DNA of 64,000 bases, taken from a virus. The notes under the pieces were generated by a model. It made no database searches. It was not told the origin of the DNA and worked only from the letters and a program-made list of their open reading frames with translations. Of this stretch, positions 3,758-58,445 are shown one piece after another (the stretch's first letter is position 1; each line of letters starts with the position of its first letter). The stretch covers positions 1 to 64,000 of the IMG/VR virus record IMGVR_UViG_3300026522_000001; one strand, 5' to 3'. Made by a program: the position numbers and the translations under genes.

Positions 3758-4280
3758 ATTTTCCCTTTAGTTCTTCATATAAGATTTCTGGTGTTATACT
3801 ATCAGGTTCTACATTCCCACAAACATTATATCCAAAAGCTCTAAGTATTCTTGTTACAGCTTCACTGCAATCCATAGTATCTTCGCCATCACTATATGTT
3901 TGTTTATTTGTTACTGTATATATAGCACCACTAATTAAAGCTAACCATCCGTATGGTTTACCCCAACACTTGTTAAACTCTTTTAATCCTGCTTTTATAG
4001 ATTGCTCATCTGCACGATAGGAAATAAATTTTCTTATATTTTCTTTTTTGTAATTAGATAGTTTTGTCTGAACAAATCCGCTAGTTAATGCTTCTCTAAA
4101 TTTACCATTTATGTTTATACCAACATGTGATGGAACAAAACTATCTTGTTTATTTTTTCTAAATAGCCCACAAAACCATTTAATTATTTTACTATACCAA
4201 TGATTTGAAGAAAAGAATATTACTTCTATTCTTACAAGATTTGTATATTTATTCCCCATAACAACACCTACTTCACACAT
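3750..4280 (-). CDS. Putative cell-wall amidase/peptidase (permuted papain-like fold), weak call
   Basis: 176 aa; overlaps the endolysin gene end by 8 nt; His block SHVGIN precedes Cys block DCSEAV. Confidence 0.4.
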   Translation of the reverse strand: MCEVGVVMGNKYTNLVRIEVIFFSSNHWYSKIIKWFCGLFRKNKQDSFVPSHVGININGKFREALTSGFVQTKLSNYKKENIRKFISYRADEQSIKAGLKEFNKCWGKPYGWLALISGAIYTVTNKQTYSDGEDTMDCSEAVTRILRAFGYNVCGNVEPDSITPEILYEELKGKWG

Positions 4281-4932
4281 TATACATAGTGGATTGGTCG
4301 AGCGTATTATCGTTTGTTGTAAACTGCCACATCTTTATATTTTCTTCTAGGTCAGGATTTTCCTCTAAAAGACTATTTACAGGATATCCATACTGGGCTA
4401 CCCAAATAAGGTAGCCTTTTTCTTTTATTGTTTCAAGAGAGACATATCCACTATCGAAATAGCTATATCCTGCATATATTCCATATAGCCCACCAGGATT
4501 TCCGCTTTGCCAATCTATTAGTGTGTCTAAGAATGTTTGTACTCTTGTATCTGCTTCTACATTCTTTGTGCTTTCAACCTCTAGGTCAGCCCATATACCT
4601 AGTGTAAATAGTTTATTATCTTCACCTAGATATTCATAAATTTTATCATTAACAAATTGTGCTTCTTTTTCAGGTATGCTATCATCTATAAAATGATTTA
4701 CATAATATATGCCGAATGGTTTGTTATATTTTACTGCCGCATTTACGTTTTCAACAAAATTATCATCTAGTGTTGGTACACCTGAAAGTGTTTCCCCTAG
4801 CTTAATTATATATCCATCAGCATTATCACGTGTATCTTCAATCCAGTCTATTGTTGTCTCATATCCATGTGTACTATTGCAATCTGAAACATCATATATA
4901 TTTGCTGTTGCCATATTATATATTACCTCCAA
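4273..4932 (-). CDS. GH25-family muramidase (endolysin)
   Basis: 219 aa; YDVSDCNS, GYIIKLGE, GIYYVNHF, WVAQYG, WQFT blocks resemble the GH25 lysozyme pattern. Confidence 0.7.
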   Translation of the reverse strand: MEVIYNMATANIYDVSDCNSTHGYETTIDWIEDTRDNADGYIIKLGETLSGVPTLDDNFVENVNAAVKYNKPFGIYYVNHFIDDSIPEKEAQFVNDKIYEYLGEDNKLFTLGIWADLEVESTKNVEADTRVQTFLDTLIDWQSGNPGGLYGIYAGYSYFDSGYVSLETIKEKGYLIWVAQYGYPVNSLLEENPDLEENIKMWQFTTNDNTLDQSTMYNV

Positions 4933-5311: not shown

Positions 5312-5995
5312 TTATGTTATCGAGTTTTGTGTGATTTGATAGTTAAACTTAAAGTCACCATCTGATAAAATATTAAATTTAAGCGTGCTGTTTCCTGTAT
5401 AGCCATAAGAATAATCTGTTCCATTTATTGCTTTTGACCATGCACCTCGTATATCAACAGTAACAGATAGTTTATCTATACTTGGCACTTGTGCAGAATT
5501 TGTTTGAGATATAGCAAAACCTATTCCTATTCCATCAACATCATTTTTACTGTCGTAGAATGTAGCCCATTGTGTTGGTGTTATTGCTCCTAAAGAACTA
5601 GCGTCAATGCCTTCATTTAACACAGTATCAACGTCCATAGCACTTAGTCTAACAAATTTACTATCATAAAATGTATAATAGTCTTTAAGGTCTTTTGTTA
5701 TAAAATAAACAATTTTACTATTTTTTTGTATTATATCTGTTACAGTAACATTATTTATTTTATCGAAAGAGTCTCCGAATAGCTCTCTAGGCAAGCATAG
5801 TATATTGTTAGGAATTGCTGTTAGCTGTACTTTGCTTACTGTGTCTGTTTCATCTTCTGATTTAACAGCTATTTTGAATTTGCCTAAATCATACAATTCT
5901 GAAGGTGATGCCTGTTCATAATTATTAAACAATGCTTCTTTTTCTGCATCACTTAATGCTGTAAAATTATCTGCTACTTTAATAAGTTTATACAA
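5312..5995 (-). CDS. Hypothetical protein downstream of DGR RT
   Basis: 227-aa ORF with no recognisable motif. Confidence 0.55.
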   Translation of the reverse strand: MYKLIKVADNFTALSDAEKEALFNNYEQASPSELYDLGKFKIAVKSEDETDTVSKVQLTAIPNNILCLPRELFGDSFDKINNVTVTDIIQKNSKIVYFITKDLKDYYTFYDSKFVRLSAMDVDTVLNEGIDASSLGAITPTQWATFYDSKNDVDGIGIGFAISQTNSAQVPSIDKLSVTVDIRGAWSKAINGTDYSYGYTGNSTLKFNILSDGDFKFNYQITQNSIT

Positions 5996-6010
5996 TTATT
6001 TCTCACCCCT

Positions 6011-7093
6011 TTATATTAGTATTCTTTTTGGCTTATATGGTTTACCATTCATTTTATAAGAAATTAACCTTGAATTTTCTCTAATTATATCTTTTACTAC
6101 ATACATATTTATATTCTTTTGCACGAAATTAAATATCTTTTTAGAATAACAATGTGTAGCCATACCTAATCTTGATGTTATTCCTTGTGCTTCTTTTACA
6201 GGTATGATTTTTAACTTACTTATTCTTCTTGTTTGATTTAATATTCCTTTTAATACTCTTTTTCTTAGTATTATTTTGTTAGGATAAAATCTATAACCTA
6301 TGAAGTCTAGTCCCATGTTTTCTAGTCTAAATAGCTGATAGGTATGTTTTGGTTTTAGTTTATATTTTCTTAATACCTTTTCTACAAGAGGTTTTATTAG
6401 TTTTGCTTTTTCCCAGTCATCACAAAAAGCCACAAAGTCATCCATATATCTTACATAGTGTTTTACTGTTGGTTGACTTCGTATTACTGAATCCATTTCT
6501 TTTAGTAGCAAATTTGCATCAAAAGCACTACAATAATTTCCTAGTGGTAATGTTTTACAGCTATATACAACTTTAGCCTTTAAGGATAAATATTTTTTAT
6601 CTTTTATAAACCTCTTATAACATTGCATCAATATGTCAGGCTGTACGTTATCAAAGAATTTTTCTATGTCTCCTTTAATGACATATGTTGTTCCTTTCTT
6701 GTCATTTGCTATCCATTTCTTTATAGCAGTAAATGCTTTCATCTGTCCTCTGCCTTTTATGCTTGCTACGGCATAAGGGTCTATTCTTTTTACTAATTTA
6801 TCTTGTATTAACATAATTAGTATATGATGAAGGCATTGGTCTGGGAAGAATTTTGGTTTTTGTAATTTTCTTAATTTCCCGTTCTCTATCCTTTCTTCAT
6901 ATATGTATTTATTTGGTGTAAATGTGTCATTCAATACCATTTCTCTTAGTAAGTCTGCATATTTATCTATATTAGCAAAGACTTTCTGTACACTTAATTT
7001 CTTGTGCTTATGTCTAGCCGCTTCTTCAATAGCAGTTATACAAAAATCATGTGTGATGTTTTCTTCTGTAATTAAATTTCCTATCCTTTTCAT
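6011..7093 (-). CDS. DGR reverse transcriptase
   Basis: 360 aa; RT motifs IKGRGQ, FDNV, LPLGNYCSA, YVRYMDDFVAF; lies directly downstream of the TR. Confidence 0.9.
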   Translation of the reverse strand: MKRIGNLITEENITHDFCITAIEEAARHKHKKLSVQKVFANIDKYADLLREMVLNDTFTPNKYIYEERIENGKLRKLQKPKFFPDQCLHHILIMLIQDKLVKRIDPYAVASIKGRGQMKAFTAIKKWIANDKKGTTYVIKGDIEKFFDNVQPDILMQCYKRFIKDKKYLSLKAKVVYSCKTLPLGNYCSAFDANLLLKEMDSVIRSQPTVKHYVRYMDDFVAFCDDWEKAKLIKPLVEKVLRKYKLKPKHTYQLFRLENMGLDFIGYRFYPNKIILRKRVLKGILNQTRRISKLKIIPVKEAQGITSRLGMATHCYSKKIFNFVQKNINMYVVKDIIRENSRLISYKMNGKPYKPKRILI

Positions 7094-7150
7094 TTCATTA
7101 TCCTAACACCATGTTTATATTGAAATACAAAACTGTATTATTTATTTCTC

Positions 7151-7400
7151 TTGTCAGCACTACAATTAACACTAATTACATTTCCAAATTAACTTCGTAC
7201 TAAGTAATTTTTATTTTGTGTATATTTTTACCTAAGTAAAGTAAGCATCACCTCATTCATTTGTATATTGTGCTGACAACTTCACAAAAACCATAGTTCA
7301 CATTAACAATGCCTACGGCATTATTACACGTAAACGTGAACAATCCACAATGTGAACCATTCTACGTGTTACTACCAACAAGAGGGGCTGTGATGCTTAC
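7151..7400 (-). ncRNA. DGR template RNA (TR plus spacer) with bracketing long-range helices
   Basis: 7390-7400 gtgatgcttac is the reverse complement of 7241-7251; 7270-7279 gtgctgacaa is the reverse complement of 7151-7160; no ORF in the region. Confidence 0.65.
7283..7389 (-). repeat. DGR template repeat (TR)
   Basis: 107 bp matching VR at offset 288; all 14 mismatches fall at TR adenines on the coding strand; in the VR frame the TR contains an in-frame TAG and AAY codons. Confidence 0.92.
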
Positions 7401-7484
7401 TCTTGAGTTACATTACTGTAACTATTTATATTATACAACAATAAAATGTAAATGTCAAATCTTACTCAAATAAAATAAAAAAAA

Positions 7485-7509
7485 CTAGGCACATTAAAAA
7501 TGTGCCTAG
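7485..7509 (-). terminator. Bidirectional intrinsic terminator between VR and TR
   Basis: ctaggcaca-ttaaaaa-tgtgcctag hairpin flanked by an A-run and a T-run. Confidence 0.7.
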
Positions 7510-7559
7510 TTTTTTTTGCCCTATTTTATTTTTTTTCTCTTTTTCTCTTTTTATTCTTT

Positions 7560-8798
7560 TTAAGCTATAGCACAAAAACCATAGTCCACATCAACAAGGC
7601 CCACGGCATGATCACACGTAAACGCGAACAATCCACAAGGCGAACCACTCCACGCGCTACCACCAACAAGAGGGGCTTGTAATCCATAAGCTGACCAAAA
7701 GTTATCATTTACTGTTTGTGTTGTTGCATTAGTATCACTAGAGGGTGTAAATAACCAATCGTAGTCTGCATCATTTGCTATAGCTGTAATTAGTGTAGAA
7801 CTACCACCATTAGGATATGTACTTGTTGTAGGAGTCCATGATGCTAAATCATTTACTGTTGGGTCTGTTTGTATTGTATCTACATCCTTAAAGTATGTTT
7901 TACCTGCATAGCATACTGCTCCATCTATATATGACCAAACATTACCCCAAAAATCTTCTATCCCTAATGCTAATGCACTTTCATTTGCTGTTACTGCTGT
8001 TGCACTACCATCCATTCCTTTTACGCTATCTGCGCCACCTGTAGTCCAAACATGACTTCCTTCGCTATATCCATTTGCCACAATAGCTTGTACATCTGTT
8101 GTTGCATATTTTACTAGCATTAACATTACTAAGCTATATTGTGCTTCAAAGGTTAATTCATTCATTCCTTTTGCTTGTAATGTTGTTCTTGCTGTATTTA
8201 ATGCTGTATTTGTTCTAGGTGTTTGTCCACTTAAGCTCTTGAAGTCTCCACTTAGTTTATATTTTGAGATATATCTTTTTTCATAGTGTTTTCCATTTAC
8301 GTAATGCCAAGGGTCAGGCTTGAATCCTGCTTTATATTTTGGTGCTACGATTATCTCAAATTTCTTATCTTCTCTTTGTACCCTTCTATACCAAAATTCA
8401 TTGACTTCAATCATGATGTCACCTTTGATAGAAGCATGAGTACCTTTTCTTATTGTCTCCCATTCTTCGTCTGTATAATCGTCTTTATACACATATGAAG
8501 CTGTCTTTGCTGTATCATTCCATATTCTACAACATTCTCTTGTTTTGAATGGTGCGATGTTCTTGAAGTTATCTATTCCTTCTACTGTATTACTGCTCCT
8601 ATTCCATGTTAATCCTGCCGCATCATACGTTCTTGTTCCTACTGTTTTACTCGGTTCAAACAATACTCCATACATAGGAACTGTTTCATCTAGTGCTGTT
8701 TTTACTGAATCAGGAATAAAACTTGTATCTACGTTTCCAATAAGTAATCCCATATCTTTCTTTTCCTCCATTAAGTAGTTTGTTCTCTCATAGCCCAA
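7560..8798 (-). CDS. DGR target protein: tail fibre/receptor-binding protein with C-type-lectin-like variable C-terminus
   Basis: 412 aa; carries the VR; GGSAW...YGF C-terminal pattern typical of DGR variable proteins; last gene of the fibre cluster. Confidence 0.85.
   Translation of the reverse strand: MGYERTNYLMEEKKDMGLLIGNVDTSFIPDSVKTALDETVPMYGVLFEPSKTVGTRTYDAAGLTWNRSSNTVEGIDNFKNIAPFKTRECCRIWNDTAKTASYVYKDDYTDEEWETIRKGTHASIKGDIMIEVNEFWYRRVQREDKKFEIIVAPKYKAGFKPDPWHYVNGKHYEKRYISKYKLSGDFKSLSGQTPRTNTALNTARTTLQAKGMNELTFEAQYSLVMLMLVKYATTDVQAIVANGYSEGSHVWTTGGADSVKGMDGSATAVTANESALALGIEDFWGNVWSYIDGAVCYAGKTYFKDVDTIQTDPTVNDLASWTPTTSTYPNGGSSTLITAIANDADYDWLFTPSSDTNATTQTVNDNFWSAYGLQAPLVGGSAWSGSPCGLFAFTCDHAVGLVDVDYGFCAIA
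7571..7677 (-). repeat. DGR variable repeat (VR)
   Basis: Covers roughly the last 36-39 codons of ORF 7560-8798 (...PLVGGSAWSGSPCGLFAFTCDHAVGLVDVDYGFC). Confidence 0.92.
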
Positions 8799-9436
8799 AC
8801 AGAATTATCAGCTACTTTTATATATACCATCTTATAGAATTTTGATAGCTCTAAATAGTCTGTCGGTATGTCTTTTAGGTATTCATTTACACCACCAAAT
8901 ATTAATACATCATCTACTGTAACATCATACCCTGTTAGTGTTTTACTGTCATTACCTAAATAAATATAGCTTTTATCATTTAAGTTAAATACAACTGTGT
9001 TTATTCCTGTTGCTATTTGTTCGTTGTTTACATATATTGTTACAGTATTATTTTTGTCTCTTTGTATTTTATACCAATTCCAATCTGTTTGTACTAATTC
9101 TTTATTATCTGTACCTATTGTTTTTGGTAGTGTTGTTCCAATGCTTGTTCCATCATTGAATATTATATGTATACTATTTGGGTGTACTTCATCTACATCC
9201 TTTAGTTTTTCAAATTTCGCCCAAAAACATACTGTAAATTCTTTATCATATGTGTATGGTATTTCACCAACATTATATAGATATGTATTTTTCTTAAATG
9301 TAGTTGCTACATATCTTTTTTTATTGCTAAATCTAGGGTCTCGTCTTACCGTGTTCATGTCTATGAGTTTACTTGATTTTGCCATAAACTCTATTGGTTT
9401 TATTTCGTCTTGCCATCTATAAATACTTTTACTCAA
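8771..9436 (-). CDS. LamG/concanavalin-like domain structural protein
   Basis: 221 aa; FTVCFWAKF...IIFNDG...WYKIQRD...VTIYVNNE pattern of Laminin_G_3-type jelly roll. Confidence 0.55.
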   Translation of the reverse strand: MSKSIYRWQDEIKPIEFMAKSSKLIDMNTVRRDPRFSNKKRYVATTFKKNTYLYNVGEIPYTYDKEFTVCFWAKFEKLKDVDEVHPNSIHIIFNDGTSIGTTLPKTIGTDNKELVQTDWNWYKIQRDKNNTVTIYVNNEQIATGINTVVFNLNDKSYIYLGNDSKTLTGYDVTVDDVLIFGGVNEYLKDIPTDYLELSKFYKMVYIKVADNSVWAMREQTT

Positions 9437-11186: not shown

Positions 11187-11218
11187 GTATTAAACCCCCA
11201 TTCACTGTAATCCTTCAA

Positions 11219-11400
11219 TTGACACTCCCCATGCTTAAAGGCAGGGGATTCCTACTTCTTTGACCGTAGCGTATGCGGTGAAACCGCATGAGGTATGGCG
11301 TAGCCATACCTTTTTATGTCTTACACAATCTCCATAGGCTTATTTTATACTGATTCCGCAAGCCCTACGGTACAGTTTTTATATTGTTTAAGCTACTGAA
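11219..11400 (-). ncRNA. Predicted TnpB omega-RNA (reRNA) scaffold
   Basis: GC-rich hairpins in AT-rich DNA just 3' of tnpB (GCGG-tgaaa-CCGC, GGTATGGC-gta-GCCATACC, CCCC..GGGG terminal hairpin); location as known for TnpB omega-RNAs. Confidence 0.6.
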
Positions 11401-12500
11401 AGTAATCTTTTACCCTCATTTAAGATGTTTATGCTTGCATTTATGTCTCTATCATGTGTAGTATGACATTTTGGACATTCCCATTCTCTGATTGACAAAT
11501 CTTTTACTTTTGGATTTCTATATCCACAAGAACTGCAGATTTGAGAACTAGGAAAGAAAGTGTCTATTTTTACTACTTGGCAATTACTTTGCCATTTTGA
11601 TTTATACTCAAGCATAGTAACAAATTTATACCATGAACAATCTTGAATAGACTTAGCTAGTCTATGACTCTTTACCATATTCTTAATCCTTAAACTCTCA
11701 ATAGCTATAACTTGGTTTTCGTCTACTAGCTTTGTTGAAAGTTTTTGAAAGAAATCATTCTTGAAATTGGTAATTTTTTCATATTGAATAGCTACTTTTA
11801 TCCTTCTTTTTTCATGGTTTTTAGATTTAGGCATTGTTCTTGAAAATTTTCTTTGTAACCTTTTTAACTTATTTTCAAGTTTTTTAATATGCTTAATATC
11901 CATATTGTATTTTGTACCATTAGATAAAATAGCAAAATCTTTAATACCTAAGTCAATACCAACTTCATTAGACTTAGAAGTTTTAAAAGTATCTTCTTCC
12001 TCAACAAGAAGTGAAACAAAATACTTATTTGATGGTGTCTTTGACACTGTAGCATTTTTGATTTTTCCAGTAAAAGCTCTACTCTGTTTTATTTTTATAA
12101 GAGTTTTTAATTTAGGCAAGTGTAACTTGCCGTCACTAATAAATATCATTCCAGACTGATTAAGTGTTCTATAAGAATTTTTCCTGTGTTTACTATGAAA
12201 TCTTGGATATTTAGACTGCTTCTTAAAAAATCTCTGAAAAGCAGTATCAAGGTCACGAAGAGATTGCTGTAAAGCAACAGAATCACTCTTTTTTAACCAT
12301 TCATATTCAGAATATCTTTTTAAATCAGTAATATGCCTTGAAAGTTCTTTCATAGAGATAGATTTTTTCTCATTTTCCCAAAGTTCTTTTTTAAGAGCTA
12401 AACAATGATTATACACAAAACGTGCATTTCCAATACATTGGTTAAAAAATTGTTTTTGACTCTCATTGGGATATAACCTAAATTTATATGCTTTTAGCAT
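11388..12500 (-). CDS. tnpB: TnpB (OrfB) RNA-guided endonuclease-type transposase accessory protein
   Basis: 370 aa; MLKAYKFRLYPN start, RuvC-like VGIDLGIKD and IAIESL, zinc ribbon CSSCG...CPKCH, DRDINASINI. Confidence 0.9.
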   Translation of the reverse strand: MLKAYKFRLYPNESQKQFFNQCIGNARFVYNHCLALKKELWENEKKSISMKELSRHITDLKRYSEYEWLKKSDSVALQQSLRDLDTAFQRFFKKQSKYPRFHSKHRKNSYRTLNQSGMIFISDGKLHLPKLKTLIKIKQSRAFTGKIKNATVSKTPSNKYFVSLLVEEEDTFKTSKSNEVGIDLGIKDFAILSNGTKYNMDIKHIKKLENKLKRLQRKFSRTMPKSKNHEKRRIKVAIQYEKITNFKNDFFQKLSTKLVDENQVIAIESLRIKNMVKSHRLAKSIQDCSWYKFVTMLEYKSKWQSNCQVVKIDTFFPSSQICSSCGYRNPKVKDLSIREWECPKCHTTHDRDINASINILNEGKRLLSVA

Positions 12501-12565
12501 TTTGTTTCACCCCCCCCCCTCCAGTTTAACACTCTCCACACCTAAATTTTTGTTATTTTGTTTAT

Positions 12566-12594
12566 ATTATAATACAAAAGTTGGTGCTTGTCAA
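12566..12594 (-). promoter_or_regulatory. Consensus promoter inside the IS left end driving tnpB
   Basis: Minus strand TTGACA (12589-12594)-N17-TATAAT (12566-12571). Confidence 0.6.
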
Positions 12595-12645
12595 TACTTA
12601 ATTTAGTTCTCGCGCCTTATATCCCCAGCCATAAATGACGGGGTT

Positions 12646-15600
12646 TTACAGTGCTTCAAATAATGTGTCTATAAATTCGTTTGTTATTGGTTGAATTTTT
12701 GTGTCATATACTGCAAGTTCAAAATTATTTTTTGAGAAACTTGTGTCATTATTCTGTTTTATGCTTCTATATATTGCACCATCATATAATACAAGCTCTC
12801 CTTCTGTATATGTATTTCCTGATTTCCAATCTTGTATATTAGATAATAATTCCCAATTATCAATATCATCTTTAAATGTATTTGCGCTTGTATGTTCTTT
12901 TATACATCTATATAATATACAATTATATATAATAACATCATTTACAAAATATCTTGTACCTTTTGCCCAGTTATCATGTTTTCTATCAAATCCATCCCAA
13001 TACTGTGGTTCAAATATACTTGTTGATATGTGTGTTGAATTACATACATACAATGCTCCATTATAATATACTAAAGTATTTTTCTCATAAACTTTATTTG
13101 CAGTCCATTTTGAAATATTTAAATCAGATACATCACCAATTAATTGCCAATATCCATCATTAACAGATATTATTAATGGCTTTACTTTATTATATGAACC
13201 ATTAGAAGCATAGCTTCGCTTTTCTCTATTTGATACGAATTTAATATATCTTGTATTTAAAGTAACTTTTAAATTAAAGTTTCCATCAAGCTCATTTTGT
13301 GTTTCATATAATTTTGAGTAATTTGTTCCGTCATCACTTACATAAATATATAAATTACAATATGCCGCGGAATAATTAGCAAAGTAAGCATAAATATTTG
13401 ATACTTGTTTTATACTTCCTAAATCATATACATCTGATGCGTCTATAGTAACATATTCGTATGAGCCTATTGGTGCGTCACCATCATATGTTGTTACAAA
13501 AAATTCATTCTTAGTATTTAATGTAGTTTGTTCAACATCTTCTGAAACACTTGTATGTGCTACTTTACATCTATATAGTTTATTATTAGAAATAACAGTA
13601 TCTCCAACTTTATAATATATTCCTTTTTTATATAATTGTACATTTGAAAATGTCTGTAACCATTCTGCTTCATCCGTTGCAAAATCATTGCCGCTTATAT
13701 GTGTTTCTACTGCTTTATATGGAACATTATTATAATAAACTATTTGGTCTTTTAAATATAATGTTTGCTTTGTCCATGTGCTAGCAATATTTATTGTTCC
13801 AATTAATTGCCAATTAGCTACATCTGCATTGAAACTTGTACTTGTATGTAATTTTACACACCTATACAAATTATTTTCATAACGAATCATATCACCAATT
13901 TCATATTTATGTGATGTTACCCAATCTAATATTGTAGCACTGCATAATTGTACCCAATCATCATTATTATAATCAACATCAAAATTATTTGTGCTTGTAT
14001 GTAATACTTTGCATCTATATAGTAAATTATTATGTAATACTAATTGGTCTTTTTTATACTCTTTGTTTGCAGTCCAGTCCGTTATTTCATCTACTGTAGG
14101 AGAAACTAATTCCCAATCACCATCAGTTTCATAATCTACTTTAAAGTCCGTACTGCTATCATTATTTTTAATGCACTTATATATCTGTGCATTTTTTAAT
14201 ACTAAATCACCAATATAATAATGTGTGTTACTTGCCCAATCGTCTATTTGTGTTTTACTTATTTCCTGCCAATAATCATTTTTATAATCGTGATTAAAAT
14301 CATTATTTGCTTTGTGTGCTAATAAGCATTGATATAGTTTATTATTATGAATAACAATGTCATCTTTTAAATACATTGTTGCCGCAGTCCATGTATTTAA
14401 TGTGCCACCACCAATGGTTTCCCAATCAGCATTATCATTGTCCCAATTAGTTGCGCTCATGTGTGCCGTTTTGCAACGATAAATCGTATTTCCATTTACA
14501 ATACATTGACCTTCATAATAATATTTATTTGCTACCCATGCTTGCAAATTTGCTAGTACGTTGCTTAGTAACGTCCATTTTGAGCGGTCTGTTTCAAAGT
14601 TACTACTAGATGTATGACCCGCTGAATTTATAAAAAATAGATTATCATATTTTATTATTGTTCCAGCCTTGTAATATACTCCGCTTGCCCAATTTGGTAT
14701 ATTAGCGTAAACTATATCCCATTTTGCAATATCTGTTTGAAAATCTGTTGTATTGCTTGTATGTTTTGTATTACAACGATATAGAATATCTTTGTATATT
14801 ACAAATTGACCTACTTGATATGGTTTATTTACTTGCCATTCATTTGCACCACCAACACCACCAACAATTTCCCATGAATTAGTTTCATTATCAAAACTTG
14901 TTGCATCACTCATGTGGTCTGTTTTAGAACGATATATAATACCGTCTACTAAAACGCATTGGCCTGTATAATAATATGTGGATGATTGCCAATTATTTAA
15001 ATATGCTGGTACATTTCCTAGTAATTTCCATTTTGCACGGTCTGTTTCAAAATTACTTGTCGATGTATGAGCACTTACACATTTATACAATAAACCATCT
15101 TTTATTACTACTACATTTAATGGGTAATATTTAGGATATGTCCAGTCATTTACTGAAGCATATAATAAGTTAAAGTTTGCAATATCATCTATAAAATTAG
15201 TGTTCCCACTTGTAAAATTTGCATTTGCTACATAGTATGTTCCTTGATATGTAACAATCTGACCTTTTTGATATTCTGTATTTTTAGCATATTCATCAAC
15301 TAAACCATATGTATCTAATAACTCAAATTTAGTTTTATCAAATGTAGTTGTACTTGTATGTTCTGTAATACATTTATAAATTCTATTATTATAAACTACT
15401 GTAGCATGTTCTTGATATAATACACCATCTTTCCACTCTTGTACATTTGAAAATAACTGTTGAAAATTAATTTTATCTTGTGCAAATGTATTTAATGATG
15501 TATGGTCTATTTTACATCTAAATATCTCATTATTATATAATACAATTTGTCCTCTTGTATAATATGTATTACCTATCCATAAGTCTAATGAGTTACTACT

Positions 15601-49016: not shown

Positions 49017-50066
49017 TTAGTTTACAGAAGCAATTAGGATTGAACCTGCACCACTCTCAACGTCTGTGCTAAAGGATGGCAAGCAAATCTGAGAAACGAT
49101 TGTCTCAACATTAACAGGGTGCTCTATTGTACGTGTAAATACTGCTACACCTGTATCAATGATGCTAACTGCATTATTCTGCTTATTGAGAAGGTCTGCT
49201 TCCTCTGGTGTTGTACCCATGAACATGTTACCAATCACGCCGTTACCAACTGGAAGAAGTGTAACAACATCATCAGGGAAGAATGTCTTTGGTGTGCCAC
49301 CAACTGCATCTCTATAAGAGTTATCATTGATAAGAACAGTTAGTCCTGTAAACTTCTGAATTGCACTCTTAACTTCTGCCGCTGTGACAAGAGGTGCATT
49401 TACTGCATTTGGATAAAGTGCCTGCTTAACTTCCTTAGAAGCCTTGATAAGATTAAATGTCTTTGTTGTCATTACTGCGTAACCAAGTGCAATACGGAAG
49501 TCTGTTCTAAATTGGTCAACCCAATTCATCAGATCTTCTAGTGGTTTGCTGTTTTCAGTATCTTCCCACTTAACAGAAGCCTTTGTCTTTTGCTTACGAT
49601 TTAGCTTGTAGTCATATGCAAGACGAACACCATTACCAACAATATCAATCTTACCAGTTGAGATAAGTTGCATTGCCATGCGTTCGCGCTGTGCTCTTGC
49701 ACCACGGATTAGGTTGTTGGTATCATCAAAGATGTTTGCAACAATTCCTTCTAGTACGCTATCATTGGAGATTGCCATGATTTGCTGTCTAGTTTCCTCG
49801 TCAACCTTCATTCTTTCACGGAAGAATGGCATCTTTGATTTCTGGAGTTCAACAGACTGTCTATCACGGTATGTTGCCTGTGTATCAAAAGCACTTGGCT
49901 TTAGAGTAACAGGAAGTCCTGCATATCCGCTAATCTTATTTATTTCAAGCCCCATAACCTTCTTCTTTGGGAAAAGGTAATCAGAAAGATAAGTTGTCTG
50001 ATTTGCTTTTGTATTATCCCAATATGCTACAATATTTTGTGGGGTAACAATATCAAAAATATTCAC
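49017..50066 (-). CDS. Major capsid protein (lambda gpE-like family)
   Basis: 349 aa; follows the scaffold and decoration genes; N-terminal IVAYWDN...YLSDYLFPKKKVMGLEI resembles Phage_cap_E. Confidence 0.75.
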   Translation of the reverse strand: MNIFDIVTPQNIVAYWDNTKANQTTYLSDYLFPKKKVMGLEINKISGYAGLPVTLKPSAFDTQATYRDRQSVELQKSKMPFFRERMKVDEETRQQIMAISNDSVLEGIVANIFDDTNNLIRGARAQRERMAMQLISTGKIDIVGNGVRLAYDYKLNRKQKTKASVKWEDTENSKPLEDLMNWVDQFRTDFRIALGYAVMTTKTFNLIKASKEVKQALYPNAVNAPLVTAAEVKSAIQKFTGLTVLINDNSYRDAVGGTPKTFFPDDVVTLLPVGNGVIGNMFMGTTPEEADLLNKQNNAVSIIDTGVAVFTRTIEHPVNVETIVSQICLPSFSTDVESGAGSILIASVN

Positions 50067-53289: not shown

Positions 53290-54636
53290 TTACAGGCCTA
53301 TACGGCGTGTAACATTTTCCATAGAATGTACTCTCTGTGTTTCCATTACTAAATATCTTAATGCATCGCAAGCGTGGTCATTAACCTTGCATGGACTATC
53401 TATACCTAACTGTTGTTTTTTTGAATCCCAACTATATGTATGTAATTCTTGTATTAGATTTGTACATTCTTTACTTATATATAATTTACCTTGTGAAAAC
53501 AATGTGGCTACTGTTCTTATTCCATCTAATACATCGTTATTAGCATTTTTTGTTTTCATATGGTATCTTCTTAACTGTAACTTAAAGCTATTTGCCGCAG
53601 GGTCTACAATTATAGGAATTTCTCTATATGTAAGCCCATCTGTTAAATATTCATTATCAGATATGAATTGTCTCATATCATTTGTATACTCAATATCTGT
53701 TTTTTGTGAATCATAGTCACCCTGTTCTTGAGCTTCTAATCTTCCTGCAAAATAATATTCTTTACATATATAAATATTTCCATTTATATCCTTAAAACCT
53801 AATTCAAAAGCTGTAGCATTTGCTGTTCCATAGTCTACACCAATATACCATTTTTCAGCCTTATCATAAGGTATATCGTCAGGATGTTTTATGTTTACTG
53901 GTGACAACATATCATATATTAGTCCATCAGCAACACACCATTTACCATCTATAAATCTACGTTTCCAAACACCACTATATAGCTGTTTGTATCTATCCTT
54001 TACTTCTTCTGAAAGTGAAGGGTTATCATCCATCGTGAAATGTAAATAGATTCCATTTATTTTTGGTAGCCTTTTTATTACATCTTTATAAAACCATGAC
54101 CAAGGACTACCAGGGTTTGAAGTAGTAAATATTTTTGCACCATCAACACTATGTCTTGCTACTAACTGATTATAGAACGATTCAGGCATTAGTACAACCT
54201 CGTCGATTAGTGAACAAGCAAGTGTTAAGCCCTGTACCATGTCTTGTGCTCTCTCATCTTTACCACCGAAGATATATACAAGATTACAAGTCTTTCCCTG
54301 ACGTAACTCTAAAAAGTTCTCACTTCTATGGTCTATTACTTCTATACCTAATGTTAAACATATTTGCTTTAGTGGATTTACTAAGTTTCTTCTTGCTGTC
54401 ATTACTGTCTTACCACTTATTGAAGCATTTTGATAGTTAAAATTTGACATTAAGAATAAAACAAAAGATGTTATAGCTACAACTGTTTTTCCTGAGCGGA
54501 CACTTCCGTCAGCTACACATATAAATTTATCTTTATATGGACTATCTTTTGTCCACCAAGATAATAATTCAAGTTGTTTTTTGCTAAATGGTTGAAACTT
54601 AAATGCTTTAGCAACAATACTCTTATTATTTGCCAT
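53290..54636 (-). CDS. Terminase large subunit (PBSX-type)
   Basis: 448 aa; Walker A ADGSVRSGKT, LIDEV Walker B-like, C-terminal nuclease-type acidic residues. Confidence 0.85.
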   Translation of the reverse strand: MANNKSIVAKAFKFQPFSKKQLELLSWWTKDSPYKDKFICVADGSVRSGKTVVAITSFVLFLMSNFNYQNASISGKTVMTARRNLVNPLKQICLTLGIEVIDHRSENFLELRQGKTCNLVYIFGGKDERAQDMVQGLTLACSLIDEVVLMPESFYNQLVARHSVDGAKIFTTSNPGSPWSWFYKDVIKRLPKINGIYLHFTMDDNPSLSEEVKDRYKQLYSGVWKRRFIDGKWCVADGLIYDMLSPVNIKHPDDIPYDKAEKWYIGVDYGTANATAFELGFKDINGNIYICKEYYFAGRLEAQEQGDYDSQKTDIEYTNDMRQFISDNEYLTDGLTYREIPIIVDPAANSFKLQLRRYHMKTKNANNDVLDGIRTVATLFSQGKLYISKECTNLIQELHTYSWDSKKQQLGIDSPCKVNDHACDALRYLVMETQRVHSMENVTRRIGL

Positions 54637-55566: not shown

Positions 55567-55640
55567 TGGAGCGAATAATCAGAATCGAACTGACATATTA
55601 TCCTTGGAGGGGATATGTTCTACCATTGAACTATATTCGC
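55567..55640 (-). tRNA. tRNA-Gly (anticodon UCC), CCA encoded, unusual C33
   Basis: GCGAATA/TATTCGC acceptor, GTTC/GAAC D stem, TATCC-CCTCCAA-GGATA anticodon arm, GTCAG-TTCGATT-CTGAT T arm, U73. Confidence 0.75.
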
Positions 55641-55642
55641 AT

Positions 55643-55716
55643 TGGATGCGGAAGAAAGAGTTGCACTTTCATCTCCTGCCTATGAAACAAGTATTCTTCT
55701 GTTAAACTATTCCGCT
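55643..55716 (-). tRNA. Non-canonical tRNA-like gene, anticodon CAU (Met or Ile2), CCA encoded
   Basis: Acceptor GCGGAA/TTCCGC with an A1xA72 mismatch, U8 A9, weak D stem GTTT/GAAT with D loop lacking GG, CTTGT-TTCATAG-GCAGG, T arm GAAAG-TGCAACT-CTTTC (G at position 55). Confidence 0.5.
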
Positions 55717-55717
55717 A

Positions 55718-56036
55718 TGGTTGAGATAGATGGGCTTGAACCATCGACCTTTGGTTTATCTTGCTACTACATATTTCTATGTCCACAAAAAATATTGTGT
55801 TGTAGTCTGGGCTATATCTTCATCATTTCAGATGGGCAACGTATAGTCTCTACGAATCCTGTGCAATCAGTTTTCTCGGTATTGTCTTTAGCATTACCTA
55901 GTAAGAGTTTCACCGATATAGTTGCCTGCACTTTATACATTAACTCATTACATTAAATCTATTGCAAGTAATGATTCTGTATAAAGGCTCATATTATGTT
56001 TAAGACCACTGCTCTAACCTACTGAGCTATATCTCA
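55718..56036 (-). tRNA. Intron-containing tRNA, most likely tRNA-Ile (UAU); exons 56002-56036 and 55718-55759
   Basis: Exons join to TGAGATA TA GCTC AGTAGGTTA GAGC A GTGGT CTT|ATAA ACCAA AGGTC GATGG TTCAAGC CCATC TATCTCA A CCA. Confidence 0.75.
55760..56001 (-). ncRNA. Group I (IC3-like) self-splicing intron in the tRNA anticodon loop, 242 nt, ORF-less
   Basis: 5' splice after U, last nt G, IGS GAGCC, P2 TTTATACA/TGTATAAA, P3 GGCAAC/GTTGCC, P4 TCGGT/ACCGA, P9 ACTACA/TGTAGT. Core GTAGAGACTATACG resembles GUAGAGACUAGACGG of tRNA IC3 introns. Confidence 0.8.
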
Positions 56037-56040
56037 ATTA

Positions 56041-56115
56041 TGGTGGGCTTACTAAGAATCGAACTTAGATTGTGGGATTAGAAGTCCCATGTATTATCCT
56101 TTATACTATAAGCCC
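56041..56115 (-). tRNA. tRNA-Arg (anticodon UCU), CCA encoded
   Basis: GGGCTTA/TAAGCCC, GTAT/ATAC, TGGGA-CTTCTAA-TCCCA, CTAAG-TTCGATT-CTTAG. Confidence 0.9.
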
Positions 56116-56338
56116 ATTATTACAAGTTTTTTCCTGTTTCCCCACCAAGCAGAATGGAAAACTTGAAAAACCATCTAACACACCCACATATTACTATGTA
56201 TATATCCATATGTAATGTTAGTCCCTAAGCCAGCTTACATTTTACTAGACGCATTTGATAAAGATTTATAAATCATATATGTATAACTTTTTTCAATTAA
56301 TTGCTGTGTGCGTCTATTCCCTTACCGCTTATATATTT

Positions 56339-56367
56339 ATTATACCACAGGTTAAGCCCTGTGTCAA
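56339..56367 (-). promoter_or_regulatory. Consensus promoter upstream of the tRNA array
   Basis: Minus strand TTGACA (56362-56367)-N17-TATAAT (56339-56344). Confidence 0.6.
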
Positions 56368-56427
56368 TACCTTATTTTTTTTTATTCTCCAAACTTGAAA
56401 TTCTGTTCTCCCCGATGACATGTACTT

Positions 56428-56456
56428 ATTCTAACACATATTAGCCCCAATGTCAA
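56428..56456 (-). promoter_or_regulatory. Second tandem promoter upstream of the tRNA array
   Basis: Minus strand TTGACA (56451-56456, overlapping the DUF2828 stop)-N17-TAGAAT. Confidence 0.5.
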
Positions 56457-58009
56457 CAGTATTTGAAAATTTCTTCGACAACGTCATAGCGGGACTTATT
56501 CAGCTGTCTGCAAAAGGCTTTATATGGGTCAAGTTCATTACAACAAACCATATCTACAAGCTCTTTACTAAATCCACTCAAAAGAATTACACCATTTCTT
56601 GAGCTTTGAATTGGGACTGTACCATCATTATAACAAGAGACATTCCAAAAAATGAGTTTAGGAAGTTCATACCCACAATCCTTATACTTCTTCTCAATAT
56701 TCTCAAATAATGTGTCATTTTCTTGTATATTTTGATTGCGTAATGGGAATCCAAATGCATCTGTATCACACATAGCAGTATTAAACTGCATATCAGAAAT
56801 GATAAGAACATTCTTTGGCATATCTGCCTGTGTCGCATTACACTTCTTTGCTGTTTTTAGGATGAGGTCAAATACAGATTCAACATTAGTTGTACTACAT
56901 TCTGTATTTTTCATTAGCTTTTCTATATTGTCCCTTAATGTATTGCAGTTTACTGTAATCATCTTTGGGTTATTAGAAAATGCCATGATTTTATCTTTGA
57001 ATACACCTGTATTATTTTTTGCACAATACAGAGCAATTGAATCCCCAATTTCCATCGCTGAAACATTTTTTGATACATATGATAACATAGAGCCACTTCC
57101 ATCTCTAACAACAAGCGTATCAGCAAATGTTTTTGGTTTCTTTTGAGATTCCCAAAGACTCTCTAGGGTATTGTCAACAGGTTTCATTCCAATGCCAAAA
57201 AAATTAGCATCTTTCTCATATGCATGAACTATGTCATACAAAAACATAGAATTAGCATTTATCTTATTTTCGCCACGAGCTACATCAATAAGATATTCAT
57301 TTCTTCTAGCAAAATCGTGCTTAAGAAAAGAATCCTTATACTTGATATTTGCTAAAGATGGTACATGAGAGTAATCTACTTTATCCCATTTATTTGAACT
57401 TAACTTTACCTCTAAAACATCTAGCCCTTTTCTTAGTTTAGAAAGTGTTTTTCTATACTGTGAAGGAGACATTCTAAAATATTTTCTAAGTTCATTACCA
57501 ACTGCTACTGTTTTCTTTGAAGATGTATTGATACTCGGCATCCATTTTGCTAAAAGACTGTATGGCTTTCCATTGGAATAATTATATAAGTCATCATAAA
57601 GCTGTTCTTGCAAAATCCCTGCAATATATATTTTTAAGTCATCATATTTTGTATTTGCAAAAAGATAAATATAGTCGTCCCATCTGCCAAATTCAGGCAA
57701 GTCAACCGTGTAAATAAATCTATAGAAAATAGACATATCGATTTCTGTAAGATGAAGTAGCAACTTTCTAAAAGTATCTCTTTCACCCATTCCTTCTCTG
57801 ACATCTCTCAAAAAGAGAAGGAATCTTAATGTCATAGCTTTATCTTGATAATATGCTTCATCAAAAAGAGAATAATCTATTGGATTTTCCCTAAATGATG
57901 AAACTTTATAGAAAAAATCTAAAAGTTTACTGCCTGTTGTAGCATAAGCTACTGCACCATTTTCTGTTGTTGTTTTTACATTGTTTTCAAGATTTTCAAT
58001 AAAATTCAT
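56453..58009 (-). CDS. DUF2828-family protein (TROVE-like N-terminal region plus vWA-like C-terminal domain)
   Basis: 518 aa; N-terminal TTENGAVAYATTGSKLLDFFYK...FLLFLRDVREGMGER as remembered for DUF2828; C-terminal VVRDGSGSM...LIISDMQF is vWA/MIDAS-like. Confidence 0.65.
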   Translation of the reverse strand: MNFIENLENNVKTTTENGAVAYATTGSKLLDFFYKVSSFRENPIDYSLFDEAYYQDKAMTLRFLLFLRDVREGMGERDTFRKLLLHLTEIDMSIFYRFIYTVDLPEFGRWDDYIYLFANTKYDDLKIYIAGILQEQLYDDLYNYSNGKPYSLLAKWMPSINTSSKKTVAVGNELRKYFRMSPSQYRKTLSKLRKGLDVLEVKLSSNKWDKVDYSHVPSLANIKYKDSFLKHDFARRNEYLIDVARGENKINANSMFLYDIVHAYEKDANFFGIGMKPVDNTLESLWESQKKPKTFADTLVVRDGSGSMLSYVSKNVSAMEIGDSIALYCAKNNTGVFKDKIMAFSNNPKMITVNCNTLRDNIEKLMKNTECSTTNVESVFDLILKTAKKCNATQADMPKNVLIISDMQFNTAMCDTDAFGFPLRNQNIQENDTLFENIEKKYKDCGYELPKLIFWNVSCYNDGTVPIQSSRNGVILLSGFSKELVDMVCCNELDPYKAFCRQLNKSRYDVVEEIFKYC

Positions 58010-58099
58010 CTTTTTTCTTCCTTCCTAGATACAAAATAATTATCCCATATTATTATTTATTATTGATTGCTGTATGTATCTAAATAAATTAAAATTATA

Positions 58100-58174
58100 T
58101 TATAAATACTTTAGGTTATGAATACCAAAACAAATCAATACAATTCCTGAAATTAGAATAAGACTAACTAGCAT
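58100..58174 (-). CDS. Possible 24-aa hydrophobic peptide
   Basis: GGAGA SD 7 nt before ATG; MLVSLILISGIVLICFGIHNLKYL. Confidence 0.3.
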   Translation of the reverse strand: MLVSLILISGIVLICFGIHNLKYL

Positions 58175-58273
58175 TATATATCTCCAAAAAGCAATTTGCT
58201 TTAACATCTATTGGTTTCATCATTTTGACTACTTATGCTATCCACCACGTAAAGGTTGATGTTACTGGATAAC

Positions 58274-58354: not shown

Positions 58355-58445
58355 AATAATTGGTTTTTTCGTTTTTTCCTTAACGACCTAGCTTTTCAGA
58401 TGCGTTTTAGTGCTGGCCAGTCACTTCAAGCATAGTCCTATCCGC

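Follow-up and report, generated by a model that had tools for sequence, protein, structure and literature searches.

The window analysed here (i.e. the whole stretch of 64,000 nucleotides) carries on its minus strand, in the direction of transcription, a gene for a target (variable) protein that ends in the VR, a terminator, a promoter, the TR, a structured RNA spacer and a gene for a reverse transcriptase (RT). The target gene is the final gene of a tail-fibre module and stands immediately ahead of lysis genes. Its likely start is the ATG at 8753, which gives a gene at 7560–8753 that encodes 397 amino acids (aa): a GGAGG motif lies 9 nt ahead of this codon, and gene callers on related contigs pick the same start and the same length. 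The mechanical ORF that bears the VR does reach to a TTG at 8798, the upper end of the region described in an earlier note on this DNA, but this TTG is probably not the start of the target. The VR (7571–7677, minus strand) lies within the last ~39 codons of the gene, the TR (7283–7389, minus strand) lies downstream of it, and the RT gene (6011–7093, minus strand) follows.

The alignment of TR and VR spans 107 nt, is free of gaps and keeps a constant offset of 288; a repeat search recovered the same pair independently as repeat family D1 (87% identity). Re-alignment reproduces all 14 mismatches given in the earlier note (TR coordinates 7298, 7304, 7310, 7314, 7322, 7325, 7337, 7351, 7353, 7360, 7363, 7367, 7369 and 7373). 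At each of them the plus-strand TR base is T, i.e. A on the minus (coding) strand, and the substitutions from TR to VR are 11 A to G and three A to C. Ten of the 24 TR adenines are unchanged in the VR, and re-tabulation finds no non-adenine mismatch across the 107 aligned positions, as had been claimed; the probability that 14 mismatches would all fall on 24 A of 107 positions by chance is 1.6e-11. The VR is in frame in the ORF at 7560–8798 (minus strand), where its 36 codons encode ...APLVGGSAWSGSPCGLFAFTCDHAVGLVDVDYGFC, followed by AIA and the stop codon, which bears out its proposed place at the C-terminus of the target. Read in the same frame, the TR contains six AAY codons, with the mismatches mainly at their codon positions 1 and 2, and, again as noted earlier, an in-frame TAG, which stands opposite TGG of the VR. 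The TR is non-coding, given this TAG and its position between the promoter and the RT gene. Because the TAG occupies a conserved Trp codon, faithful copying of the TR would truncate the target. A stretch free of A (GGTTTTTGTG) leads up to 7571/7283, where TR/VR homology stops abruptly. The stop codon is overlapped by a palindrome of just 8 nt (GCTATAGC), and no real hairpin lies closer to the VR than the terminator, 53 nt downstream; neither a GC-rich IMH nor a hairpin within a few bases of the VR, of the kind known from phage BPP-1, is evident. The 64 kb contain no second VR.

The RT is intact, with 360 aa and a YMDD motif (RYMDDF), in agreement with the earlier note. It matches RVT_1 (2.2e-19) and phrog_1423 (5.4e-70), and its top PDB match is the Bordetella phage enzyme bRT (8ub7_A, 1.8e-11). 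The homologue alignment shows no variation at the residues equivalent to bRT K29, R74, D138 and D215/216, and this RT has every residue that is invariant there. Domain 4 departs from the signature [I/V/L]GxxxSQ: the motif reads LPLGNYCSA, in which L and G are present and the final Gln is Ala. The canonical IGxYTSQ is found in more distant relatives, while the closest clade has SA, SG or SI at the end of this motif. The Gln of SQ touches the incoming dNTP in bRT (10.1101/2023.10.23.563531), yet the substitution Q187P leaves the misincorporation frequency of bRT unchanged (PMC7826257), so the SQ motif is typical but not obligatory. The nearest phage RTs in INPHARED are those of the crAss-like phages cr50_1 and cr10_1, Butyrivibrio phage Arawn, Lactobacillus phage LBR48 and Faecalibacterium phages; DGR RTs of such deposited gut or rumen phages share at most 35% protein identity with the RT, and these phages have zero nucleotide similarity to the window.

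The same parts could in principle be read without a DGR, as a group II intron, retron or defence RT that happens to lie beside a duplicated gene fragment whose non-coding copy drifted towards A+T. The genome is indeed AT-rich (30.8% G+C), the TR (40%) is poorer in G+C than the VR (53%), and the RT gives generic RT-domain matches to group II, retron and DRT models. However, in the profile search these matches fall far below the curated cut-offs for group II intron, retron and Drt families (77.8 vs 300 bits, 52 vs 235 bits, and others similar), and bRT is the nearest solved relative. AT drift would alter G to A and C to T alike, whereas every mismatch falls on A of one strand and none on T, both here (14 of 14) and in the independent VRs of four related lineages whose cassette is intact (70 of 70); their concentration at the first two positions of AAY codons also argues against drift. 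Furthermore, most RT relatives examined have the same arrangement: among 83 loci (80 IMG/VR RT relatives at 27–46% identity plus the loci L001–L003), 62 have a VR/TR pair with adenine bias immediately ahead of the RT and in the same order, and the target has the fold of DGR variable proteins (see below). We therefore consider the reading without a DGR extremely improbable. As far as sequence analysis reaches, it is refuted, and the locus is a genuine DGR of a known kind, from a subgroup without the Avd helper protein. Each refuting condition named in the earlier note was checked, and none told against a DGR. We place the RT in the DGR clade on the basis of the bRT match, phrog_1423, the family cut-offs and the VR/TR pairs of its relatives.

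We then examined the region around the TR for transcription signals and RNA structure. A bidirectional intrinsic terminator (7477–7517), i.e. a strong hairpin flanked by an A-run and a T-run, is the sole strong hairpin downstream of the VR and is expected to end the target transcript; relatives keep it with a compensatory change (CTAGGCACA/TGTGCCTAG vs CTATGCACA/TGTGCATAG). Past it lies a perfect sigma-70 promoter (7430–7458, minus strand; TTGACA, 17 nt, TATAAT; 12 of 12 consensus matches), which is predicted to drive a TR–RT transcript. A promoter with TTGACA, a 17-nt spacer and a –10 element that matches TATAAT at five or six of six positions occupies the corresponding position in each of the nine close-clade loci.

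Two long-range helices, both on the minus strand, appear to frame the TR. The 5′ arm of P1 (AGAGUAAGCAUCAC, 7390–7403) ends exactly at the first TR base, the place taken in Bordetella by the upstream strand of the 'cPRT Stop' duplex, and its 3′ arm (GUGAUGCUUACUUU, 7238–7251) lies 31 nt past the TR, which gives a duplex of 12–14 bp; P1 helices of at least 8 bp, with differing sequences, occur in 46 of 64 relatives. The 5′ arm of P2 (UUGUCAGCAC, 7270–7279) begins 3 nt past the TR and pairs with a 3′ arm at 7151–7160 (GUGCUGACAA). L001 and L090 show a compensatory U-A to C-G change in P2, and many relatives have analogous helices at the same positions. Averaged over all relatives, the excess over shuffled controls is modest (9.3 vs 7.0 bp for P1, 8.2 vs 7.4 bp for P2). 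Directly past the 3′ arm of P1 comes a short hairpin (UUAC-UUAG-GUAA) followed by AAAA (7224–7239, minus strand). A hairpin with at least three A is found here in 33 of the 46 relatives that have P1, compared with 21% at random positions, and its stems covary among relatives (TTGCC/GGCAA, TACC/GGTA, CACC/GGTG and others). These elements were mapped onto the cryo-EM description of the bRT–Avd–RNA complex (10.1101/2023.10.23.563531). At the sequence level, the cPRT Stop triad of flank duplex, short stem-loop and unpaired adenosines is thus present in the window and recurs with covariation in relatives.

The spacer also contains an RT-18-like structured RNA (7160–7238, minus strand) that comprises the hairpin, an outer stem (ACAC/GUGU), an inner stem (AUUAC/GUAAU) and UAGUA and GAAA loops. 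Its match to RF03021 (RT-18) is below threshold (23.5 bits vs a gathering score of 41.3; E 0.04 in a search of 211 nt), although the alignment covers the full model length and every helix forms. The gathering score of RT-18 or RT-17 is reached between TR and RT in 13 of 18 relatives tested, and a model that we built from 10 relatives finds this site as its only match in 175 kb (19.7 bits, E 0.2). The element of the window is best described as a divergent homologue of RT-18.

Comparison with related phages bears on whether the element still works. In the closest clade, with RTs 52–54% identical, five loci show the same pairing of VR/TR and RT. The TR is nearly unchanged (two differences) in L001, L002 and L174, and the VR of the window differs from that of L001 at 12 positions, all of them TR-adenine positions; one TR difference, C vs A at position 8, recurs in the VR. 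Some close RT relatives have an uncharacterised Cys-rich ORF of 117–140 aa between VR and TR. Several other close relatives lack the RT or the whole cassette: (i) L090 has an internally deleted RT, (ii) L175 has a replaced TR and only RT fragments, (iii) L176 is missing a segment that runs from the TR to around residue 300 of the RT and (iv) L093 lacks the cassette cleanly. This indicates that the element is dispensable. Relatives that lost the DGR retain the target gene with a fixed VR, and they also keep the gene past the RT (5312–5995), which hence is not part of the cassette.

Such repeated loss raises the alternative that the copy in the window is a recently inactivated DGR, with its parts present but homing lost and the VR frozen in its last state. 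The TAG at an essential Trp codon of the TR and the SA in place of SQ in the RT would fit this alternative, and inactivated DGRs with adenine-only mismatches are on record (PMC3521204). By contrast, the RT has the same full length as in intact relatives and keeps its alignment-invariant residues, the promoter, P1, P2 and the hairpin are intact, and non-adenine mismatches number none of 14 here but three of 19 in L090, in which the RT is deleted. Moreover, both the SA and the TAG are common to lineages whose VRs have diverged at adenine sites, which indicates that diversification continued after both arose. Recent inactivation is accordingly unlikely in our view, and we infer ongoing activity from the comparison with related phages.

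We also analysed the target protein. Its sequence has no Pfam, NCBIfam or PDB match, including to Pfam families such as FGE-sulfatase or DUF1566, but it matches phrog_5302 'tail protein' (2.3e-35). An AlphaFold2 model (pLDDT 83.6, pTM 0.87) finds as its top fold matches TaqVP (5vf4; E 3e-8, TM 0.45–0.47), then Mtd (1yu0–1yu4; E 2.6e-3 to 1.2e-2) and then formylglycine-generating enzymes (FGE). The target is thus predicted to carry a C-type-lectin fold, the fold for which the earlier note had proposed to model its last ~120 aa, with a conserved scaffold motif (GGxxW...GLF...GF) in the VR area; its N-terminal two thirds have no recognised relative. About 50 related gut-metagenome proteins are hypervariable at the AAY-templated residues, with a mean column entropy of 1.40 bits in the VR vs 0.32 elsewhere, and, starting from three known TR variants, changes at adenines alone suffice to produce 88% of the VR residues seen in them.

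The name 'tail fibre' given to the target earlier is backed by synteny and by one PHROG tail family, but not by a characterised homologue. Accordingly, a working DGR might instead diversify some other virion- or lysis-associated lectin, for instance an auxiliary adhesin that binds mucus, glycans or cell debris, with no bearing on host range. The target being the last gene ahead of the lysis genes is compatible with such a role, as is the survival of the gene with a fixed VR in DGR-less relatives, in which variation is evidently not essential. However, the upstream neighbours are CBM_5_12 and Laminin_G_3 proteins, and the order of CBM fibre, Laminin_G_3 protein and target is kept across phages whose RTs are just 52–54% identical. 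The best fold matches also include Mtd, which determines the tropism of phage BPP-1. In addition, two further loops of the target that are not templated by the TR are hypervariable between relatives, as expected of a surface under host-driven selection. We regard a lectin without a role in host range as rather improbable, and a receptor-binding tip as the better reading.

Taken together, the locus is very probably a functional, accessory-gene-free DGR ('Architecture A', i.e. target-VR, TR, RT) of a tailed, AT-rich phage that is uncultivated and comes from gut metagenomes of animals or humans. In the mechanism that we propose, the consensus promoter past the terminator of the target would transcribe the TR, the structured spacer and the RT gene. 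P1, which on pairing and covariation joins the bases just 5′ of the TR to the segment 31 nt 3′ of it, would loop out the TR and be followed by the 4-bp hairpin with its A-run, and then by P2 and the RT-18-like stem with its UAGUA and GAAA loops. By analogy with Bordetella, these RNA elements may (i) bind the RT and place the TR 3′ end for cis-primed cDNA synthesis and (ii) halt cDNA synthesis at the TR 5′ edge, which is the exact end of TR/VR homology. The RT would copy the TR faithfully except at adenines, in line with the adenine-specific outcome seen here and in relatives, and the cDNA would then replace the VR in a presumed homing step, recoding up to ~17 residues of the lectin-fold tip and allowing roughly 5.6e11 protein variants.

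No Avd protein would take part in this mechanism, to judge from its absence from the window and from the cassettes of relatives. None of ten ORFs of 91–178 aa searched elsewhere in the window matches PF05635, no ORF lies in the 181-nt gap between VR and TR or the 189-nt gap between TR and RT, the VR–TR gaps of relatives are also too short for a gene, and no avd, HRDC, MSL or CH1 gene accompanies the TR–RT core. Because Avd genes are little conserved and the window covers only part of the phage genome, a helper may still exist that is encoded far away or escapes recognition. DGRs without avd make up 29% of a curated set and include one RT lineage that lacks avd (PMC5758913). A bolder possibility, which we put forward tentatively and do not favour, is that this RT clade is truly Avd-independent, with RNA alone scaffolding the enzyme and with the SA and amber changes altering mutation. 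The scaffold may then consist of P1 with the hairpin and A-run, the RT-17/18 element and, where an Avd-binding stem-loop would otherwise be, P2. The change from Gln to Ala in the SQ motif may also alter how the RT mutates; A-to-G changes account for 72% of 123 substitutions in the non-SQ clade, compared with 50% of 974 in loci with SQ-type RTs. On this bolder reading the amber codon would matter too: any cDNA with a faithful copy of its adenine, at this structurally required Trp, gives a truncated protein, so that a quarter or fewer of events would survive, and the codon may serve as a built-in filter or brake on diversification.

To our knowledge, prokaryotes and their viruses have no natural system of targeted protein hypermutation other than DGRs, which are currently being engineered for use in directed evolution. 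We know of biochemical and structural work only on the Avd-dependent Bordetella element, and Avd-less DGRs form a large but mechanistically unstudied minority. The locus leaves the understanding of what DGRs are unchanged. It offers a clean and fully delimited DGR from a group of uncultivated gut phages to which no deposited phage or genome is closely related and, with RNA and a 360-aa RT as its two parts, a compact system in which to test Avd independence. The comparative set extends the cPRT Stop RNA architecture, at the sequence level, to an Avd-less clade, and RT-17 and RT-18, two orphan Rfam motifs, are linked by it to DGRs.

Compared with the BPP-1 DGR (mtd-avd-TR-brt, of the avd-TR-RT type called Architecture B), the locus shares (i) adenine-specific differences, (ii) a VR at the C-terminus of a tail protein with a C-type-lectin fold and (iii) a flank duplex, short stem-loop and unpaired adenosines, followed by a long interrupted RT-binding stem. 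It differs in several respects. BPP-1 has avd and an Avd-binding stem-loop directly after the TR, whereas the window has neither and contains the long-range helix P2 there; BPP-1 has a GC-rich IMH with an adjacent cruciform-forming hairpin, neither of which is evident in the window; and the TR–RT unit of the window, unlike that of BPP-1, has its own consensus promoter. bRT is a distant relative (E 1.8e-11), with SQ in motif 4 where the window has SA. The signature that the earlier note called classic is thus classic in its adenine-only mismatches, but not in its lack of an Avd gene, its SA for SQ or its want of an evident BPP-1-like IMH and hairpin. The spacer RNA differs as well, being RT-18-like in the window, while RT-10 is the BPP-1 motif and the only one that Weinberg et al. 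2017 linked to a DGR, the other motifs being a matter of speculation (PMC5737381). Rfam RT-18 (RF03021) and RT-17 (RF03020) resemble the window copy in their TR–RT position, hairpin with A-run, outer and inner stems and UAGUA and GAAA loops, although the window copy is AU-rich and below the gathering threshold. TaqVP of Thermus aquaticus (5vf4) and Mtd (1yu0–1yu4) are just 10–16% identical in sequence to the target, but all three have their variable residues C-terminally on a C-type-lectin scaffold. In layout, the locus has Architecture A1 as defined by Wu et al. 2018 (PMC5758913) and resembles their RT Lineage 3, which lacks avd: target-VR, TR and RT follow one another there as they do here and in most of the RT relatives examined.

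The locus is a diversity-generating retroelement (DGR) that targets the lectin-fold tip at the C-terminus of a tail-fibre-module protein and belongs to the known type without accessory genes. The template region (TR, 7283–7389, minus strand) and variable region (VR, 7571–7677, minus strand) that an earlier note had paired were reproduced as an ungapped 107-nt alignment at offset 288, with likeness breaking off sharply at both ends; a repeat finder returned the pair as the longest repeat family (87% identity). All 14 mismatches claimed in that note were recovered at their positions, each a plus-strand T and hence a minus-strand A in the TR, and the VR base is G at 11 of them and C at three. The 10 adenines said to be unchanged are indeed so, giving 24 in the TR, and the chance that 14 of 14 mismatches fall on 24 adenines among 107 positions is 1.6e-11. 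Had a non-coding copy undergone general AT drift, T versus C would be expected on this strand as well, and none was seen. A search of both strands of the 64 kb with the TR, its adenines wild-carded, found no second VR.

As claimed, the VR lies in the coding frame, at the end of an ORF at 7560–8798 (minus strand), and the TR, read in the same frame, has six AAY codons and a TAG that faces a TGG in the VR. Of the 24 adenines in the TR, 20 stand at codon positions 1 or 2, as do 12 of the 14 that are changed. The target gene probably starts at the ATG at 8753, nine bases after a GGAGG, which gives 397 aa, the length also assigned by gene callers on related contigs. Since the target has no sequence match in Pfam, NCBIfam or the PDB, its fold was taken from prediction. 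An AlphaFold2 model built on a 62-sequence alignment (mean pLDDT 83.6, pTM 0.87) has as its best PDB fold match TaqVP, the DGR variable protein of Thermus aquaticus (E 3e-8, TM 0.45–0.47); five variants of Mtd, the variable protein of Bordetella phage BPP-1 (E 2.6e-3 to 1.2e-2), and, among the best matches, formylglycine-generating enzymes were also found. The check for a C-type-lectin fold proposed in the note thus came out positive on the predicted model; this fold family carries most known VRs. The pairing of TR and VR in the note is thus borne out, and its reading of the locus, with a reverse transcriptase (RT) next to the TR, as a DGR is supported. The target also contains three 33-nt direct repeats (7704–7736, 7848–7880 and 7980–8012; 73–76% identical, spaced by 144 and 132 nt) encoding D-x-x-x-T-x-x-T-[VA]-N-[DE], which probably reflect a repeated structural unit in the protein rather than a part of the DGR.

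By gene content the window is a segment of a tailed-phage genome: it contains a terminase (53290–54636), a major capsid protein (49017–50066), a tape-measure-like ORF of 2777 aa, Phage_BR0599 and Phage-tail_3 proteins, long CBM_5_12 and Laminin_G_3 fibre proteins, a GH25 lysin (4273–4932) and four tRNA genes. The fibre module ends with the target gene, whose product matches PHROG 5302 ('tail protein'). Two other loci are worth recording. A TnpB gene (11388–12500, minus strand; HTH_OrfB_IS605, OrfB_IS605 and Cas12f1-like TNB domains), without TnpA, is inserted between two tail-fibre genes and has GC-rich, structured flanks (11187–11390 and 12500–12650). A 518-aa DUF2828/DUF7788/vWA protein (56453–58009, within the region 55567–58355) is surrounded by the four tRNA genes (Gly, Met, Arg and Leu) and ORF-free stretches; its domain combination recalls Ro60/TROVE-like proteins, which are partners of small RNAs.

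The YMDD reverse transcriptase reported at 6011–7093 (minus strand) is a 360-aa RVT_1 protein with an RYMDDF motif, and matches PHROG 1423 at 5.4e-70. Its top solved relative is bRT, the RT of the Bordetella phage (8ub7, 1.8e-11), with a group II intron RT a close second. Membership of a retron or group II clade, which would speak against a DGR, is not favoured by the family scores: the protein reaches 77.8 bits against NCBIfam group II maturases (cut-off 300) and 52 bits against retron St85 (cut-off 235), is also far under the cut-offs for Drt2, Drt3a and Drt4, and obtains only generic RT-domain scores from PADLOC. Counterparts of bRT K29, R74, D138 and D215/216 are invariant across the homologue alignment. 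More decisive for the DGR assignment than any family score is the locus context of the RT relatives. An adenine-bias scan of 83 loci (80 from IMG/VR, with RTs 27–46% identical, and the ENA loci L001–L003) recovered the order VR, TR, RT with an adenine-biased pair in 62, the TR lying ∼110–150 nt before the RT; the same arrangement occurs in five closest-clade loci (RT 52–54% identical).

DGR RTs carry the signature [I/V/L]GxxxSQ, and motif 4 of the window RT reads LPLGNYCSA. Its final dipeptide is SA, SG or SI in the closest clade and SQ in more distant relatives. In bRT this glutamine (Q187) touches the incoming dNTP (10.1101/2023.10.23.563531), and a Q187P change leaves the misincorporation frequency unchanged but shifts its spectrum (PMC7826257); 15 of 155 DGR RTs vary in the last two signature residues (PMC3521204). 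A>G changes make up 72% of adenine substitutions (89/123) in the non-SQ clade (TR/VR pairs of the window, L001, L174, L091, L084, L086, L088 and L089) versus 50% with SQ-type RTs (n = 974, 70 loci); with selection and relatedness as confounders, the difference is no more than suggestive.

Diversification can be followed among related phages. The contigs L001 and L002 encode an RT 94% identical to that of the window and a TR with two differences from the window TR; their VR differs from their own TR at 21 positions, all adenines, and from the window VR at 12, all TR-adenine sites. At TR position 8, where the window and these contigs differ (C versus A), the difference is mirrored in the VRs. 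L174 combines the TR of L001 with a third VR (18 differences, adenine-only), and L091 has a more diverged TR (17 adenine-only TR/VR differences). Together, the four intact-cassette lineages show 70 mismatches with none off adenine, while L090, in which the RT gene is cut to its last ∼45 codons, shows 16 adenine and three non-adenine mismatches. Among 51 relatives of the target protein (78–93% identical, from many gut metagenomes), mean column entropy is 1.40 bits in the VR versus 0.32 elsewhere, and its peaks fall on AAY-templated residues; in the 49 sequences checked, 88% of VR residues are reachable by adenine-only changes from three TR variants. These sequence comparisons support active diversification in the lineage at the population level, which does not in itself prove activity of the window genome. 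Two target loops outside the VR, residues 230–237 and 318–320 (window 8043–8066 and 7794–7802), are templated by no TR and are almost as variable as the VR among ∼50 relatives, with up to 12 residue types and indels; they may be neighbours of the VR on the binding surface, with ordinary mutation or recombination as the source of their change.

The TAG is present at the TR Trp codon in all four intact-cassette lineages, and all their VRs read TGG there; the TR of the RT-deleted L090 reads TGG. The only other in-frame TR stops among 63 VR/TR pairs are in L033 and L044, where the frame is apparently mis-assigned. Faithful copying of the TAG adenine would truncate the target, and a share of homing events would therefore be wasted. 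The TAG may be a tolerated defect or a brake. Stop-codon reassignment was dropped as an explanation given the long unbroken ORFs under the standard bacterial code, and is also moot for an untranslated TR. Within the literature library that we could search, no account of in-frame stop codons in natural TRs turned up.

Close relatives whose target protein is 82–91% identical have lost the DGR by four different routes: (i) an internal RT deletion with the TR kept (L090, 5185–5777); (ii) a hairpin-rich insert of ∼190 nt in place of the TR, with only an RT fragment remaining (L175, 3697–4129), the insert being unrelated on comparison to the TnpB-gene flanks of the window; (iii) a deletion from just past the promoter to about RT residue 300 (L176, 3694–4042); and (iv) clean absence of the cassette (L093, 5194–5240). 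These relatives retain both the target gene and the 227-aa gene downstream, and the gene after the RT (5312–5995) is thus not an accessory gene. The window belongs to a phage group without a close deposited relative: the region 5800–9000 has no nucleotide match among 50,697 deposited phages, and a protein search of these returned RTs only, at ≤35% identity. Scanning species-representative genomes with the target alignment gave no relatives, and with the RT alignment only relatives of ≤36% identity, in gut Bacillota and other MAGs. It is very likely that the window DGR either works or was silenced only recently.

The sequence around the TR contains a set of putative expression and RNA elements. 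A strong bidirectional terminator (7477–7517) ends the target gene and is followed by a perfect TTGACA-17-TATAAT promoter (7458–7430); all nine close-clade loci have a near-consensus promoter at the same place. Directly before the TR, 14 bases (7403–7390) can pair with 7251–7238 (helix P1), and P1 is directly followed by a UUAC-UUAG-GUAA hairpin and an A-run. A 10-nt stretch that begins 3 nt past the TR (7279–7270) can pair with 7160–7151 (helix P2), and a stem with UAGUA and GAAA loops lies between the P1/hairpin and P2 elements. P2 shows a compensatory U-A to C-G change in L001 and L090, and in more distant relatives the same positions are taken by helices that differ greatly in sequence. 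Aligned with MAFFT, the close-clade TR flanks matched too poorly beyond the TR itself for use of RNAalifold, so helices were tabulated per locus by a script, which is more permissive and has a high shuffled background in AT-rich DNA. P1 is at least 8 bp long in 46 of 64 relatives, and 33 of these 46 have the hairpin and at least three adenines (versus 21% at random positions). Because the mean P1 length over all loci exceeds that in shuffles only modestly in this AT-rich DNA (9.3 versus 7.0 bp), the case for an RNA element is built on consistent position and on covariation rather than on energy. The Rfam motif RT-18 aligns at full length with 7160–7238 (minus strand) at 23.5 bits, below its threshold of 41.3, and 13 of 18 relatives tested pass the RT-18 or RT-17 threshold at the same position. 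A covariance model that we made from ten RT-18 hits matched only the window site in 175 kb (E 0.2) and, with default filters, missed the other close-clade loci. Weinberg et al. (PMC5737381) linked RT-10 alone to a DGR and, for the other RT motifs, offered speculation. Neither a BPP-1-like IMH, the element at the VR 3′ end, nor an adjoining hairpin is evident at the window VR. In several close relatives (L084, L003, L088 and L086), a strong terminator-like hairpin and T-run separate the structured spacer RNA from the RT start codon, which suggests that attenuation there yields more TR RNA than RT mRNA; at this place the window shows no more than a weak AU hairpin (∼7121–7137).

The gaps between VR and TR (181 nt) and between TR and RT (189 nt) contain no ORF, the VR-TR gaps of relatives are just as short, and none of ten 91–178-aa ORFs elsewhere in the window matches the family of the accessory protein Avd. 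This is the accessory-free 'Architecture A', which makes up 29% of a curated DGR set in which one RT lineage is wholly without avd (PMC5758913). In three relatives with RTs 52–54% identical, a Cys/His-rich ORF of 117–140 aa (L003, 9286–9639; L088, 5201–5623; L089, 5286–5660) with the pattern C.FCN...H...VPDC..C...C...VH..C lies between VR and TR, where avd lies in BPP-1. It matches no Pfam family, has no counterpart in the window by tblastn and is possibly an alternative accessory protein. The locus is of value for its well-delimited RNA and RT parts, and the comparative set is of value for work on Avd-independent DGRs.

A canonical DGR mechanism, with an RNA that dispenses with Avd, is most likely by analogy with the Bordetella bRT-Avd-RNA particle solved by cryo-EM, and it is on this basis that we infer promoter use, priming site and homing. 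In that system, the spacer RNA primes cDNA synthesis in cis, and synthesis ends just before a duplex of TR-upstream sequence with a spacer segment; this duplex, the short stem-loop behind it and unpaired adenosines in A-minor contacts form the 'cPRT Stop', after which come a 'thumb ring' of single-stranded RNA and an RT-binding stem that is long and interrupted, and an Avd-binding stem-loop directly follows the TR (10.1101/2023.10.23.563531). The survey in the same work was limited to DGRs with Avd. The window resembles the Bordetella system, here as read from sequence, in its triad of duplex, short hairpin and A-run, and the edge of P1 falls precisely where TR/VR homology has its 5′ end, which is what a polymerization stop would predict. 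An interrupted stem also occupies the RT-binding position in the window. Unlike Bordetella, the window would form the long-range helix P2 where the Avd-binding stem-loop would sit.
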